IMG/VR virus record: IMGVR_UViG_2541047426_000009
Coordinates: 1-27,364 of that record
Strand: one strand, 5' to 3'
DNA length: 27,364 bases
Origin: a virus
Lineage: Duplodnaviria > Heunggongvirae > Uroviricota > Caudoviricetes
This document shows positions 12,357 to 19,384 of the stretch, piece by piece (position 1 is the stretch's first letter; every line of letters begins with the position of its first letter). The position numbers and the translations under genes are program-made. Below the pieces are notes generated by a model, which saw only the letters and a program-made list of their open reading frames with translations, ran no database searches and had not been told where the DNA came from.

Positions 12357-12760
12357 CACCACACTTATCTGCCCTGACTCTCTTTTGCGGGCTTTTTATT
12401 ACAGGAAAGACACCGGACAGTGAAATGTTAAATGCCTCACAATTCAGGCAGTTGACTGTTGCCTGACATGCTGAGCGTTTGTTAAAAAAATCCTGCATGA
12501 TGAATCCCCCTGAGCGGCGGGGCATAATGACAGATGTTTGGTTGCGTATTGTATAGGCAAGTTGCGGATTCTGTCTGGTCATTGCAGAATTCACCGGGAG
12601 GCACCCGGCATCATGCTGTATACAGAGATTAGGCATATATCCAGGCTTCTCATCGCAGGAGCCTTTTTACATGCAAAAAAAAGCCCGAGTGGGTTCGGGC
12701 AACAGCATGAGATACTTGCATTGTCATTTTTATCGTGTGGATTTTAACCAGGGTTTATAA

Positions 12761-14295: not shown

Positions 14296-14337
14296 TGAAC
14301 CGCCCCGGGTTTCCTGGAGAGTGTTTTATCTGTGAAC

Positions 14338-15228
14338 TCAGGCTGCCAGATCATCGTTTCCGATGGAAGCATAATAAGCTTTTTCTGCTTCTGCCGGAGG
14401 AGTATGGCCCAGCCTTCCCAGCAATCGTCGATTGTTATACCAGTCCACCCACGTTAGTGTGGCCAGTTCCACTTCTGCACGGTTTTTCCAGCTCTTACGG
14501 TGTATTACCTCCGCTTTGTAAAGACCATTGATGCTCTCAGCCATCGCGTTGTCATACGAGTCGCCTGTACTCCCTGTTGATGCCAGTAATCCGGCTTCTT
14601 TTAGTCGCTCCGTATAGGCCAGTGACACATACTGAGAGCCTTTATCGCTGTGATGGATGGTGCCAGACGGACGACGGGCCCACAACGCCTGCTCCAGCGC
14701 ATCCAGCACGAATGTCGTTTCCATAGACGATGAGACCCGCCACCCCACGATGTATCCGGCAAACACATCAATGATAAACGCCACATAGACGAAGCCCTGC
14801 CATGTGCTGACGTAAGTAAAATCAGCCACCCACAGCTGGTCAGGTCGTTCTGCCACGAACTGACGGTTTACGCGGTCGCCTGCGGCAACGGCTTTCCGGC
14901 TGATGGTCGTACGGACCTTTTTACCCCGGAGAACACCGGCAAGTCCCATAACCGCCATGAGACGTGCCACTGTACATCTGGCCACCCTGATTCCTTCCCG
15001 TAACAACTGACGCCAGACTTTACGCACACCGTACACCTGATGATTTTCATCGTATACGCGCTGTATCTCTCTCTTCAGCCAGTCGTCGTGCTGCGCACGG
15101 GCACTGCGTTTATCCGGATGATGTCGCTGTTGCTGACAATGGTAATACGTTGACGGGGCAATATGCAGTTCGCTGCATACCGGTCCGACCCCGTACTGCT
15201 CACGCAGCTTATCCAGCAGTGGCATCAT
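14338..15228 (-). CDS. IS3-family transposase OrfB (DDE catalytic domain)
   Basis: 296 aa; matches recalled IS629 OrfB. Confidence 0.9.
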
Positions 15229-15551
15229 TTTTTCCAGAGGCGGTCGAACTCCGCCTTCGCAAAATAAGCGGAAGCCTGGCGAAGGATATCGTTACTGCGG
15301 CGCAGTTCACGATTTTCACGTTCCAGCTCTTTCAGACGCTGACGTTCAGCGCTGGTGAGCCCACCATCACCGCCCCCGGTATCCCGCTCATGCTGGCGAA
15401 CCCAGACACGCAGAGTCTCCGGCGTACAGCCAATCTTTGGGGCAATGGAACAAATTGCCGCCCACTGTGAGTCATATTCATCCTGACTTTCCAGAACCAT
15501 ACGAATCGCCCGCTGACGGACTTCGGGGGAAAAACGAGTATTTTTAGTCAT
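15225..15551 (-). CDS. IS3-family transposase OrfA (HTH)
   Basis: 108 aa; overlaps orfB start, typical -1 frameshift arrangement. Confidence 0.9.
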
Positions 15552-15605
15552 CCTGTTTACCTCTTTCTCAGGGAGTTTAGTCTCCAGGATTTCCGGGGCG
15601 GTTCA

Positions 15606-16045
15606 GACTGACCTGTAAGTTCCGCCTGTCAGGCGCACTGACCAACAATCAGTTCGGGCTGGGGATTTATCTGTATACGGATGCTCCCGTTCCTGATGGT
15701 GTGGCGATGACGGGTACCGGTAATCCGTTCCTGATGTCGTACTTCACTCAGACCACTGACGGCAGAGTGAATCTGATGCATCACAGGAAAGCCGGAAACA
15801 CGAAGCTGGGGGAGTTCGGCGATTACGGTAACGACTGGCAGACGCTGGAGCTGGTGTTCACCGCCGGCAGTGCCACGGTTACTCCGAAACTGAATGGAGT
15901 GGCTGGCCCGGCATTCCAGGTTATAAAAGACAGTATGACACTGGGACTGAATGCGCTGACGCTGACGGATGTTACAAAAAATGCAGCGTATGGCGTTGAG
16001 ATAGAAAGTCTGGTGCTGGAGATAAATGCACCGGCATCATCATAA
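15606..16045 (+). pseudogene. C-terminal part of the nanS-p-like esterase, separated from the N-terminal part by the IS element
   Basis: After removing the IS and one TSD copy the frame is continuous with the upstream segment; track ORF 15701-16045 is its tail. Confidence 0.65.
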
Positions 16046-16194
16046 AAAGTGAGCCAGTCAAATGGAAGGTATCGTTAAACTCACCGGTAGTGTCAGTGGG
16101 TCGTCTGAGACGCCTGCATGAGTTATCAGAGCCATCAGTAGTTAACTGGTGGCTTTTTTATTGTTGTCAGCTTCCGGATAACGGGAGACGGGGT

Positions 16195-16410
16195 ATGTAC
16201 CAGATGGAAAAAATCACAACGGGTGTGTCATACACCACGTCAGCGGTGGGGACGGGATACTGGTTACTGCAGCTGCTGGACAAAGTCTCTCCGTCCCAGT
16301 GGGTGGCGATAGGCGTGCTGGGGAGTCTGCTGTTTGGGCTGCTGACATATCTGACGAACCTGTATTTCAAGATTAAAGAAGACCGGCGTAAGGCGGCGCG
16401 GGGAGAGTAA
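16195..16410 (+). CDS. class II holin / pinholin (phage 21 S-like)
   Basis: 71 aa, dual-start MYQM; matches recalled S21 ([16 protein letters not shown]...[22 protein letters not shown]); GGGAGA RBS. Confidence 0.8.
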
Positions 16411-16414
16411 AGTG

Positions 16415-16759
16415 ATGAAGAAAAAATACGAACTGGTTGTTAAAGGGATAAATAATTACCCGGATAAGATTACTGTTACTGTGGCACCGGAAATTGGTGG
16501 GTATCCGTCACTGTTGTTGCCAGATGTGGCGATTAGTCTTGACCGTACTGAAGGTGCCACGCTGGAGTTTTACGAAGCTGAGGCGAAAAAGCAGGCGAAG
16601 CAGTTTTTCATGGATGTTGCTGCCGGGTTATGTGAAGGGGATGGTCCGTTGCCGGAAAAGCGCCCCGTAATTTTAGAGGCGCAGGATGTGTTGATAACCT
16701 ACAGAGGAAAACTACCGGGAATAATTACGGGTTCTCTGAAGACTCCACCGCTGGCCTGA
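16415..16759 (+). CDS. uncharacterised 114-aa protein inserted between holin and endolysin (YdfR-like by position)
   Basis: Starts 5 nt after holin stop with GGGGAGAG RBS; soluble, no recognisable motif. Confidence 0.5.
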   Translation: MKKKYELVVKGINNYPDKITVTVAPEIGGYPSLLLPDVAISLDRTEGATLEFYEAEAKKQAKQFFMDVAAGLCEGDGPLPEKRPVILEAQDVLITYRGKLPGIITGSLKTPPLA

Positions 16760-16809
16760 AGACTTAACATATCCAGGGATTTGAAATCGATAAACCCTGA
16801 TAAATATCC

Positions 16810-17343
16810 ATGAACGCAAAAATCAGATACGGCCTGTCGGCTGCCGTTCTGGCGCTGATTGGTGCAGGGGCGTCTGCGCCTGAAATCCTCGACCAGTTTC
16901 TTGACGAAAAAGAAGGTAACCACACCACGGCATACCGTGATGGTGCGGGTATCTGGACCATCTGCCGCGGTGCCATCCTGGTGGATGGTAAACCTGTCGT
17001 TCCGGGCATGAAGTTGTCGAAGGAAAAATGCGACCAGGTTAACGCCATTGAACGTGATAAGGCGCTGGAGTGGGTGGAGCGCAATATTAAAGTACCGCTG
17101 ACCGAACCCCAGAAAGCGGGGATCGCGTCATTCTGTCCGTACAACATTGGTCCCGGTAAGTGTTTCCCGTCGACGTTTTACAGACGAATTAATGCAGGTG
17201 ATCGCAGGGGAGCGTGTGAGGCGATTCGCTGGTGGATTAAGGACGGTGGCAGAGACTGCCGTATTCGCTCAAACAACTGCTACGGTCAGGTTTCACGGCG
17301 TGACCAGGAGAGCGCGCTGGCGTGCTGGGGAATTGACAGATAA
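16810..17343 (+). CDS. SAR endolysin (GH24 lysozyme, phage 21 R-like)
   Basis: N-terminal weakly hydrophobic Gly/Ala-rich segment then E...D...T catalytic pattern (DEKEGNHTTAYRDGAGIWT). Confidence 0.85.
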   Translation: MNAKIRYGLSAAVLALIGAGASAPEILDQFLDEKEGNHTTAYRDGAGIWTICRGAILVDGKPVVPGMKLSKEKCDQVNAIERDKALEWVERNIKVPLTEPQKAGIASFCPYNIGPGKCFPSTFYRRINAGDRRGACEAIRWWIKDGGRDCRIRSNNCYGQVSRRDQESALACWGIDR

Positions 17344-17435
17344 GCAGAATATTTTGCTGAAAAATGCGGTTTGCTCACACTGGCGGATAACACGAAATCC
17401 TGCGAACTGGCAAAAACTAAGTGAATAAAAGTAAA

Positions 17436-17470
17436 ACCCCGTTTGTTGGCCGCAAACGGGGTTTTGTGTT
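17436..17470 (+). terminator. strong intrinsic terminator after the endolysin gene
   Basis: CCCCGTTTG-ttggccg-CAAACGGGG followed by TTTTGTGTTT; A-rich upstream so possibly bidirectional. Confidence 0.55.
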
Positions 17471-17498
17471 TCTGACCTTGAGTAAGGCAAGGGAGAAC

Positions 17499-17681
17499 AT
17501 GGGAAAGTATAAACGAATTCTGTTGAGATTGACTATGAAAAACGGCCTTGAACTGAAAGCGCCTGTAACTGATGACGTCAGCAGAGCGCTGGCTTTTGCT
17601 ATTAAGTGGGTGGCGGTCGGTATTGCTGTGTCTCCGATGCTGTATGGGCTGGCAAAACTGGTCATTGCGTTGAAATCGTGA
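17499..17681 (+). CDS. small 60-aa protein with C-terminal hydrophobic helix
   Basis: ATG with AAGGGAGAA RBS; C-terminal segment ALAFAIKWVAVGIAVSPMLYGLAKLVIAL. Confidence 0.4.
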   Translation: MGKYKRILLRLTMKNGLELKAPVTDDVSRALAFAIKWVAVGIAVSPMLYGLAKLVIALKS

Positions 17682-17693
17682 AGAGGATTAAGC

Positions 17694-17825
17694 ATGTCAG
17701 ACAAGCTCATAACGCTGGCGAAGATCCTCTGTGTAATCGTCGGCATTTCATTTTCACTAATGCTGGTTGCTATTTGCTTTTCCACTGCCTGGCGCGTCTT
17801 AACTTTGTCATGGCTGGTGGGGTGA
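17694..17825 (+). CDS. 43-aa single-pass membrane peptide
   Basis: ATG with [52 protein letters not shown]; below the ORF-track size cut-off. Confidence 0.35.
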
Positions 17826-17832
17826 GGGGGAT

Positions 17833-18300
17833 ATGAACCGTGTTCTGTGTGTGGTGATTATTGTCCTGCTGGTAGCCTGTGGTGTGCTTAGTCTGGGGCT
17901 GAATCATTACCGCGATAACGCCATTACCTACAAAGCGCAACGCGATAAAAAAGCCAGTGAGCTGAAGCTGGCGAACGTGACAATTACTGATATGCAGGTA
18001 CGCCAGCGTGATGTCGCTGCACTTGATGCCAGATACTCGAGGGAATTAGCCGATGCGAGAGCTGAAAATGAAACTCTGCGTGCTGATGTTGCCGCTGGTC
18101 GTAAGCGCCTGCGCATCAACGCCAACTGTCCAGGCTCCTTGCGTAAAGCCCCCATCACCTCCGGCGTGGATAATGCAACCGGTCCCCGACTGGCAGAAGC
18201 CGCTGAACGGGATTATTTCATCCTCAGAGAACGGCTGATGGCAATGCAGAAGCAACTGGAAGGAGCACAGGAATATATCCGTACCCAGTGTATACCGTGA
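17833..18300 (+). CDS. Rz i-spanin
   Basis: 155 aa; N-terminal TM then coiled-coil-like region; contains embedded +1-frame lipoprotein ORF. Confidence 0.8.
18068..18238 (+). CDS. Rz1 o-spanin lipoprotein embedded in Rz
   Basis: [15 protein letters not shown] lipobox signal then Pro-rich mature peptide, wholly inside Rz in the +1 frame. Confidence 0.7.
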
Positions 18301-18763
18301 TGTTTTGTTACGAAGGTGTTACTGGTAACGTTAAGGTAATTTAACAAAGAGTCAGTTCCGGACTTTATAGTGTGCTCAGTTCATGGCCAAAAACGATTTC
18401 TGTGATAAATATTTTGAATATTATTTACAGGTAAATGGAGTGGGGCACATGGATAGAAATATTACAATAGAGTATGAAGTATATGCCCGTATTGTATGGG
18501 CAGAGAAGGCAAAAACATGGTAATTCCGTGTGTTGCCATGATACCTGATTGGCAGAATTGTTGTTTGGTTTTGAGTATATAGTCAGCGTCTTTTGTTCGG
18601 TAATTGCTCTTTCAATTAAAATGCCAGATATGATTTGCTTTTCTTTGTTGTTTAGTTTTTTTGTATATTATTTTTATTGTTTTTATATAATTAGTTTTTT
18701 ATTGTTGTCTTATTAAGCACGGTAAATTCAGGATGGCAGTCTGTAGATAAACGGAGGTTACTT

Positions 18764-19078
18764 ATGCTACATGATCACCTGGCAGAATGTCTGGAGAAAA
18801 AAGGACTGTACCGGAGAGCAGCTGAACGATGGGCAAAAGTGATGGTACAGCTAAGTGATGACCAGAAAAGAAAAGTGGCGGCACAGAAACGAGCAGAGTG
18901 TTTGCGTAAGGCGCGCCGGACTCCGGTTTCACCGATGAACCTGACAGAAATAAAACAAGCGGTCAACAGACTACATTCTGAGTTGGGAATGGGATTTGAA
19001 GAGCGGCGGGTATTCCGACGATATAAAGGGACAGGAGAACAGAATACGTCCGGAAACGCGCGGTCAAAAAAATGCTAA
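18764..19078 (+). CDS. PerC-family transcriptional regulator (Pch-like) moron
   Basis: 104 aa; pattern LEKKGLYRRAAERWAKVM...RAECLRKARR...LTEIKQAV matches recalled PerC/Pch family; strong RBS AAACGGAGG; AT-rich upstream region. Confidence 0.6.
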   Translation: MLHDHLAECLEKKGLYRRAAERWAKVMVQLSDDQKRKVAAQKRAECLRKARRTPVSPMNLTEIKQAVNRLHSELGMGFEERRVFRRYKGTGEQNTSGNARSKKC

Positions 19079-19159: not shown

Positions 19160-19384
19160 TTAAGTAAACCTGTCTGAACAGGTTCTCTGGTCGTGTTTGT
19201 CTTTGTTGGGTACAAATTGAGAATATTTTTCATTAATTAATCTTCTTCTGCAGGCTTCAATAACCCACGCTGAAAAATTTCCTGAACCTTTCAGATCAAG
19301 AGCGATGTTAATTTGTTCAATCATCTGGTTTGGAAATCGGATGTTGCGGGTTGTTGTTCTGCGGGTTCTGTTCTTTGATGACAT
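19160..19384 (-). CDS. small 74-aa protein, possible ribbon-helix-helix regulator (YlcI/YnfO-like by position upstream of terminase)
   Basis: ORF on minus strand in AT-rich region; assignment by size and context only. Confidence 0.45.
   Translation of the reverse strand: MSSKNRTRRTTTRNIRFPNQMIEQINIALDLKGSGNFSAWVIEACRRRLINEKYSQFVPNKDKHDQRTCSDRFT

Follow-up and report, generated by a model that had tools for sequence, protein, structure and literature searches.

Results

Two small genes lie between the endolysin and spanin genes

We analyzed a 27,364-nt stretch of DNA (IMG/VR record IMGVR_UViG_2541047426_000009; hereafter, the window), which is a lambdoid prophage of Escherichia coli O157:H7. 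The region of interest is a phage-21-type lysis cassette, composed of a pinholin (S), a signal-arrest-release (SAR) endolysin (R), and the Rz/Rz1 spanin, in which two short open reading frames (ORFs), ORF1 and ORF2, lie between R and Rz. A first-pass annotation had placed the terminator, ORF1, and ORF2 before Rz, and these coordinates were exact. The features of the junction are:

17433–17465, both strands possible: intrinsic terminator hairpin (13-bp stem, A-tract upstream, T-tract downstream)
17499–17681, plus strand: ORF1, 60 aa (PGAP coding sequence; phrog_1115; ratio of nonsynonymous to synonymous differences, pN/pS; homologues; AlphaFold)
17694–17825, plus strand: ORF2, 43 aa (PGAP coding sequence; phrog_4906; synteny; pN/pS; AlphaFold)
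17833–18300, plus strand: Rz i-spanin (Pfam PF03245, E = 2e-46)

We conclude that ORF1 and ORF2 are genuine conserved genes, each encoding a very small protein predicted to cross the inner membrane once. Both start with ATG. ORF1 is preceded by a Shine–Dalgarno (SD)-like AAGGGAG at 17489–17495 (SD/anti-SD duplex −8.4 kcal/mol) and ORF2 by AGAGGA 6 nt upstream (−5.8 kcal/mol); these starts and SD sites are conserved. The PGAP annotation in RefSeq calls both as hypothetical proteins (WP_001303555.1 for ORF1 and WP_001280929.1 for ORF2), and both match PHROG families (phrog_1115, E = 6.6e-42, and phrog_4906, E = 7.3e-24, respectively). They are thus already catalogued in RefSeq and PHROGs as hypothetical proteins, and in kind they are small accessory membrane proteins of phage lysis cassettes. 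Among 5.8 billion proteins, homologues formed 118 clusters for ORF1 (E. coli, E. marmotae, and Salmonella) and 100 for ORF2 (all E. coli), reaching down to ~60% identity with the hydrophobic transmembrane (TM) cores kept. At the DNA level, the 489-nt R–Rz interval is present at at least 80% coverage in 990 of 5426 complete E. coli genomes and is 100% identical in many O157:H7 chromosomes.

The pattern of substitution points the same way. In the annotated frame, pN/pS (Nei–Gojobori, on the distinct DNA variants fetched, which were few and mutually related) was 0.20 for ORF1 and 0.37–0.39 for ORF2, while the other frames gave values of ~1 or higher, save the antisense frame that shares wobble positions. 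Within ORF2, the N-terminal TM half (0.30) is more constrained than the C-terminal half (0.44). The most diverged ORF1 pair, from E. coli and Salmonella, has 38 nucleotide differences and just 12 amino acid differences. The first-pass annotation had held that ORFs lacking protein-level conservation would be non-coding spacer; judged by homologues and pN/pS, both are kept at the protein level in related prophages and are therefore not non-coding spacer.

Competing reading frames were rejected. A 122-aa antisense ORF (17417–17785) crosses the terminator and has a worse pN/pS than the sense frame; it is a shadow ORF that exists because the antisense frame shares wobble positions. An 86-aa version of ORF1, starting with GTG at 17421, would run through the terminator hairpin. 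For an ORF in an alternative frame over the 3' end of R and the spacer that follows (17147–17428), the post-R alignment, as we read it, showed substitutions without synonymous bias.

ORF1 and ORF2 are predicted to be single-pass membrane proteins

AlphaFold models built from alignments are simple helices, spanning residues 3–14 and 23–59 of ORF1 and residues 2–42 of ORF2, the latter at a predicted local distance difference test score of 90. The maximum Kyte–Doolittle hydropathy of any 19-mer is 1.90 for ORF1 and 2.86 for ORF2. By prediction, ORF1 comprises a basic N-terminal cytoplasmic part of ~30 aa that includes the conserved motif MKNGLExxAPVT, a weakly hydrophobic C-terminal transmembrane domain (TMD) rich in Gly, Ala, and Ser, and 2–4 periplasmic residues; with a net charge of +5 on the N-terminal flank, the positive-inside rule would make it an N-in, tail-anchored protein. 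ORF2 is a strongly hydrophobic single TM helix, equal in hydrophobicity to the Rz TMD. The first-pass annotation had given a single-pass TM helix to the 43-aa peptide only; that prediction stands, and its scope widens to include the 60-aa ORF1.

Neither protein matched any model in Pfam, NCBIfam, or PADLOC, and no Pfam family, the PF04971 holins included, reached E ≤ 1. ORF1 ends in LKS after its TMD and carries its charge at the N terminus, and the tail of ORF2 is essentially uncharged; neither has the charged cytoplasmic C-terminal tail after the TMD that characterizes class II pinholins. Nor did we find spanin traits: PF03245 and PF06085 gave no match, no lipobox was visible, and the periplasmic part is at most ~14 residues.

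Several origins that we considered for these genes were discarded. Paralogy between ORF1 and ORF2 was not supported (hhalign probability 1.6%; shuffle p = 0.12), nor was derivation of ORF2 from a duplicated Rz TMD (KILCVIV versus RVLCVVI; shuffle p = 0.15). The possibility that ORF2 is a leftover of an ancestral R 3' end was set aside, as its DNA has no similarity to the R–Rz region of phage 21.

ORF2 is constantly next to Rz, and ORF1 belongs to a mobile module

We surveyed synteny at ~185 related loci (L-numbers denote loci of this survey). With few exceptions, 1–10 nt separate the end of the ORF2 homologue from the Rz ATG, or the two overlap by 4 nt, whereas the preceding gene varies: it is ORF1 (~100 loci), a 189-aa P22_AR_N-type Ant, or a 231-aa PF03374 ANT protein. 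ORF2 is thus the constant Rz-proximal gene of cassettes of the Shiga toxin (Stx) phage type. Among the exceptions are L028–L031, where a 311-aa DNA methyltransferase (2640–3575) is inserted precisely at the junction of ORF2 and Rz, and three loci (the L101 group) in which the Rz start used has no small ORF ending within 40 nt of it. Some prophages carry ORF2 copies that are frameshifted or fused to ant, and in the L057 group the ant fusion is in frame.

By tblastn, ORF2 homologues were found in 276 phage records, including 933W, phi24B, Min27, Stx2 phage I, and P13374. The first-pass annotation had considered a peptide of this size to be below usual annotation cut-offs. This holds for many phage records: of 60 records chosen as a spread sample, 36 carry annotation but no feature at the ORF2 site (933W, phi24B, and Min27 among them), and in 933W the homologue occupies the "gap" between ant and Rz, where AF125520 has no annotation of it. 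It does not hold for PGAP or for the Sakai annotation, both of which call the gene (in Sakai as ECs_1966 in Sp10 and ECs_5713 in Sp6).

ORF1 is rarer. It matched 14 phage records, 7 of them at at least 80% query coverage; a profile search of 1.84 billion representative proteins recovered just 20 relatives at E ≤ 0.001, and a scan of genome contigs for ORF1 relatives gave no match. The relatives share a cytoplasmic MKNGLExDAPVT-type motif followed by the TMD, and they end in LKS, LK, or RWW. Salmonella prophages carry ORF1 on its own, 10 nt upstream of Rz, with another class II holin and a 35%-identical SAR lysozyme as its neighbors. One of these prophages, L004, also has a 34-aa hydrophobic ORF (MYMAAMICFVAAFMLACDGRSGWGWFLLVGLIVM, 3708–3812), which overlaps the lysozyme gene at its end and precedes the conserved spacer. 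A resemblance to the ORF1 family is also seen in short "RWW" peptides that immediately precede Rz in L008, L133, and L177, and H-19B has a 45-aa RWW peptide with an unrelated N terminus at the same place.

The cargo of the R–Rz junction is variable, comprising two Ant types, the DNA methyltransferase, and from 0 to 4 tandem small TM ORFs. These small genes have been duplicated, fused, and reshuffled (L091, 827–1077; L177, 1501–2046; L188, 1–554; and the L057 group). Four stand in tandem between R and Rz in L177, and the tandem ORFs of related prophages include ORF1, ORF2, a GTG-started copy of the C-terminal half of ORF1, and a 28-aa peptide ending in RWW. In some prophages, ORF2 comes first and the ORF1 C-terminal half follows. 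ORF1 is a mobile module made of a terminator hairpin plus a small gene, with the hairpin on the 5' side, and the same arrangement recurs in L004, L185, and L186.

The two genes are probably expressed from the late transcript

The other features of the cassette are:

16195/16204–16410, plus strand: S, phage-21-type class II pinholin with a dual start (MYQM; 71- and 68-aa forms; Pfam PF04971, E = 7.3e-33; alignment)
16412–16759, plus strand: DUF1327/YdfR-family gene between S and R (Pfam PF07041, E = 5.5e-46; PGAP "YdfR family protein")
16810–17343, plus strand: R, SAR-type lysozyme, that is, the SAR endolysin (Pfam PF00959, E = 1.5e-24; hydropathy)
17344–17432, plus strand: conserved non-coding spacer after R, core GGCGGATAACACGAAATCC (alignment of 40 distinct post-R sequences, including Salmonella)
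17535..17506, minus strand: weak sigma-70-like site TAGTCA-N18-TATACT inside the 5' end of ORF1 (promoter scan)
18053–18238, plus strand: Rz1 o-spanin, embedded in the +1 frame of Rz (Pfam PF06085, E = 4.1e-19)

The R protein begins with MNAKIRYG, followed by a Gly/Ala-rich segment of weak hydrophobicity. The DUF1327/YdfR gene is a further accessory insertion, here between holin and endolysin; it is not in phage 21, and K-12 Qin has ydfR.

The terminator hairpin begins 90 nt after the R stop codon and is separated from the ORF1 ATG by 33 nt; because it has an A-tract upstream and a T-tract downstream, it is potentially bidirectional. Every R21-type cassette that we examined has the conserved post-R spacer of ~85 nt followed by an intrinsic terminator, and the terminator exists in two unrelated sequence forms, an ORF1/H-19B type and an ant type. 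Across variants of the ORF1 type, 96% of stem cells are paired, and three pairs show compensatory changes. The spacer itself had no Rfam match and no convincing fold. It is kept also after the 35%-identical Salmonella lysozyme (L004, ~3830–3905) and contains a hypervariable patch of ~15 nt.

The first-pass annotation had given the two ORFs their own terminator and ribosome-binding sites. The ribosome-binding sites are there, and so is the terminator; it lies upstream of the ORFs, however, and therefore closes no unit of their own, the ORFs being contiguous with Rz. ORF1 and ORF2 are separated by 12 nt, the ORF2 stop codon and the Rz ATG by 7 nt, and the Rz SD (GAGGGGGA, −11.3 kcal/mol) overlaps the ORF2 stop. 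With such spacing, translation of ORF1, ORF2, and Rz is probably coupled. A promoter scan found no plus-strand promoter-like site in 16000–19000. Given the upstream terminator, the lack of a promoter after it, and the close spacing with Rz, we infer that the Q-antiterminated late transcript is probably the sole source of ORF1 and ORF2 and yields them together with Rz/Rz1. Such expression would argue against both a conversion gene expressed in the lysogen and an autonomous toxin locus, and the two proteins would then be in the inner membrane during the accumulation of the lysis proteins.

Neighboring genes

Upstream of S, at ~14300–15596, lies an IS3-family (IS629-like) insertion element; its transposase ORFs are on the minus strand, and it contains an ALIL frameshift pseudoknot (15154–15270). 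As judged by comparison with Sakai Sp10, the element interrupts a SASA/NanS-p esterase gene. Downstream of Rz lie a PerC/Pch-family regulator gene (18764–19078) and, on the opposite strand, a YlcI/YnfO (DUF3950) gene (19160–19384, minus). A convergent pair of small RNAs (sRNAs) follows the tRNAs (12466–12674, plus; 12676–12735, minus); one member is STnc100-like (175 bits), and the other resembles the anti-sRNA AgvB, at 56.6 against an Rfam gathering score of 56. The pair matches the sRNA arrangement described for the pR' "moron site" of Sakai prophages (PMC4104026). In the early region of the same prophage, a sok antitoxin RNA at 7349–7498 (plus strand; Rfam RF01794, 104 bits) implies a hok/sok-type type I toxin–antitoxin locus there.

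Discussion

ORF1 and ORF2 may tune lysis

What might these proteins do? In phage 21 (OL657228), R overlaps Rz by 4 nt, in agreement with the first-pass annotation's statement that Rz follows R directly, and the same is true of K-12 Qin. ORF1 and ORF2 are therefore accessory insertions and not core lysis machinery, and the pinholin/SAR-endolysin/spanin pathway works without them. Our tentative account is that both are late-expressed accessory inner-membrane proteins in the R–Rz junction of the lysis cassette, whose likeliest function would be to tune lysis. Having been inserted as accessory cargo into the junction of a phage-21-type cassette, they would reach the inner membrane while pinholin, SAR endolysin, and i-spanin accumulate there, and they could then act on the timing of pinholin triggering, on SAR-endolysin release, or on spanin function. 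Such a lysis-modulating role, which the first-pass annotation had named as one possibility, is plausible.

For ORF1, one conceivable target is the second TMD (TMD2) of the pinholin, which ORF1 might bind. The S21 TMD2 carries a G40-x3-S44-x3-G48 face used in pinhole assembly. The ORF1 TMD (K36-WVAVGIAVSPMLYGL) resembles S TMD2 (from Q35) over a local stretch of 16 residues with the pattern WVAxG...S...G. The Smith–Waterman score was 40 (p = 0.0006–0.004 against composition-preserving shuffles, values weakened because several pairwise comparisons were made), and BLASTP gave E = 0.002 as a single comparison. At the DNA level, ORF1 and S share two collinear in-frame matches (11/11 and 13/14 nt), and a metagenomic contig holds a natural S::ORF1 chimera, in which the 5' half of a holin gene and the 3' half of ORF1 are joined exactly at the shared AGTGGGTGGCG. 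The likeness is marginal, and we treat it as a testable hypothesis and not as a finding.

On a more far-reaching reading, the R–Rz junction of pinholin/SAR-endolysin cassettes in Stx and related prophages could be an expandable array of small TM regulators, in which ORF1 would be a trans-acting, TMD2-like modulator of the pinholin (an antiholin or pro-holin encoded by a separate gene) and ORF2 a partner of the TMD of Rz or of the pinholin, the two jointly setting the time of lysis and of Shiga-toxin release. We regard this elaborated version as unlikely.

Several observations weigh against a function in lysis or against the pinholin likeness. By hhalign, ORF1 matches the pinholin only weakly (probability 5%, E = 0.007), Pfam's holin model has no match in ORF1, the exhaustive profile search of 1.84 billion proteins with ORF1 returned no holins, and, with its predicted N-in orientation, the ORF1 TMD would lie the opposite way to TMD2. 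Frameshifted variants of ORF2 exist, and the pN/pS values come from a limited set of relatives. Finally, ORF1-family modules occur outside lysis cassettes: one follows tail-fibre genes (L185, 2432–2689), and two in tandem precede a portal-like gene (L186, 245–504 and 520–737). On this last observation, generic moron cargo is a better fit than a dedicated lysis factor.

Alternative explanations

Under that alternative, ORF1 and ORF2 would be membrane proteins unrelated to lysis, acting for instance in superinfection exclusion or in interference with a host membrane protein, and the junction would simply be a permissive insertion hotspot. The variable cargo of the junction, the duplicated, fused, and reshuffled copies, and the modules beside tail-fibre and portal-like genes would all be expected of such cargo; phage 21 lyses without either gene, and the genes are extra ones at a junction that is empty in phage 21 and K-12 Qin. 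The transcriptional layout is not that of a moron, which has its own promoter upstream and a terminator downstream: here the terminator is on the 5' side, just upstream of the genes, and we found no promoter from which a repressed prophage could express them. Moreover, ORF2 lies beside Rz in all but a few loci and was never found in other contexts, and the exclusion and defence models of PADLOC, Pfam, and NCBIfam gave no match. We consider this explanation somewhat doubtful, and we continue to prefer a role in tuning lysis.

ORF2 might instead serve mainly as a translated leader, which brings ribosomes to the Rz start or opens it now that insertions separate Rz from R, with the peptide itself secondary. 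Phage 21 and Qin couple Rz to R through the 4-nt overlap; in the window, the SD of Rz overlaps the stop codon of ORF2, and in ant-type phages the ORF2 start in turn overlaps the ant stop. Frameshifted ORF2 variants still read to a 4-nt overlap with the Rz ATG, and the C-terminal half of ORF2 is the less constrained one. A leader has no need, however, to form a helix that is conserved and strongly hydrophobic; as protein, the N-terminal TM half is almost invariant, and Rz has a very strong SD of its own. On balance, a mainly cis-acting function is improbable.

The first-pass annotation had compared the 43-aa peptide with type I toxins and had suggested looking for a promoter on the opposite strand. 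A type I toxin–antitoxin-like arrangement would have ORF1 or ORF2 as a membrane-depolarizing toxin whose translation is blocked by an antisense RNA of ~70 nt from the 5' end of ORF1. Both proteins are suitably small and hydrophobic, with a single TM helix. The minus-strand site at 17535..17506 would start, hypothetically, at ~17499 an RNA of ~70 nt that is complementary to the ORF1 SD and ends at the hairpin, whose A- and T-tracts could terminate transcription on both strands and which the scan scored on the minus strand. The same site recurs in the diverged L185 module, and by our own reading H-19B shows TGCTAAAAT at the equivalent place. Against this, the scan found 2 promoter-like sites when shuffled sequences led us to expect 4.3, the hexamers sit in conserved codons, and in L186 their spacing is lost. 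The search of the strand opposite ORF2 (17694–17825) found no promoter-like site, Rfam (gathering score and E ≤ 10) gave nothing credible in 17250–17900, and none of the mapped Sakai Hfq-CRAC sRNA peaks falls at an R–Rz junction. An autonomous toxin unit would have its own promoter and a long, structured 5' untranslated region; here, the stretch between R and Rz showed no plus-strand promoter, the terminator and the ORF1 ATG are just 33 nt apart, and the genes run directly into Rz. We therefore judge the type I reading very unlikely. Known sRNAs of related prophages were considered as candidates for the junction and rejected: HnrS (EcOnc10-12), a multicopy sRNA of the prophage late region, lies 74 nt downstream of Rz in Sakai Sp10 and is not in the window, and EcOnc33 (~71 nt, Sp6) lies within the esterase gene.

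Least probable is that ORF1 and ORF2 are non-functional ORFs within a spacer, as their shortness, the few frameshifted or fused prophage copies, and the missing ORF2 annotation in many phage records might suggest, since pN/pS is well under 1 solely in the annotated frame and its wobble-sharing shadow, starts and SD sites are conserved, and the E. coli and Salmonella copies of ORF1 differ far more in DNA than in protein.

Significance

The phage-21-type pinholin/SAR-endolysin pathway has been regarded as needing nothing beyond S, R, and Rz/Rz1. Nonetheless, a conserved 43-codon membrane-protein gene, usually unannotated, abuts Rz in the majority of Stx-type phage records of the collection, including 933W, and searches by accession, locus tag, and topic found no study of ORF1 or ORF2 in the searchable literature. 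The timing of lysis in Stx phages governs phage yield and toxin release, the latter because the toxin exits the cell at lysis. Should ORF2 or ORF1 modulate lysis, a system of medical relevance would gain a regulatory layer, and with it a simple genetic handle. Even without a role in lysis, many phage genome annotations stand to be corrected, and a hotspot of duplicated and shuffled tiny TM genes is documented.

Comparison with known systems

ORF1 and ORF2 are like the type I toxins (Hok/Sok and others) in size and in having a single hydrophobic helix, but they are embedded in an operon and lack both their own promoter and a long folded leader, and an antisense RNA for them is hypothetical. With holins and antiholins of the class II pinholin type they share a position in the lysis cassette beside the endolysin gene, but not the family signature. 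Phage P2 has, between its endolysin gene and the Rz/Rz1-like lysB/lysC, the non-essential membrane-protein gene lysA, with a reported effect on lysis timing. LysA is larger and multi-spanning, and Pfam and PHROG scans revealed no relation of ORF1 or ORF2 to it.

The releasin gp25 of phage Mu (DUF2730) is a small membrane-tethered protein, made from the late transcript within a few genes of the SAR endolysin, that helps SAR endolysins to leave the membrane; it has 99 aa, an N-out/C-in topology, a 73-aa acidic cytoplasmic domain, and almost no periplasmic part (PMC9239132). ORF1 and ORF2, as the first and second genes after the SAR endolysin R, fall within five genes of it and are probably late, and ORF1 similarly combines a short cytoplasmic part, one TMD, and 2–4 periplasmic residues. 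They differ in lacking a DUF2730 signature in Pfam and in size and topology: ORF1 has 60 aa and is predicted to be N-in, with a basic cytoplasmic part of 30 aa. Mu also has no pinholin, whereas the cassette here has one.

The closest cassettes are those of phage 21 and the Stx phages. Phage 21 has the same holin family (PF04971, dual start), a SAR lysozyme, and an embedded two-component spanin, and the C-terminal part of its Rz is 82% identical in DNA. Its S, R, and Rz overlap one another with nothing between them, however, whereas here DUF1327 lies between S and R, and the spacer, terminator, ORF1, and ORF2 lie between R and Rz; the two cassettes also differ in the type of their Rz TMD. The junction genes of Stx phages, such as the ant of 933W, share the insertion point with the window, together with the conserved post-R spacer and the terminator that follows it. 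Where the window has ORF1, the ant phages have a 189-aa Ant-like protein, and 933W, Sp6, and Sp10 all have the ORF2 homologue after ant and before Rz.

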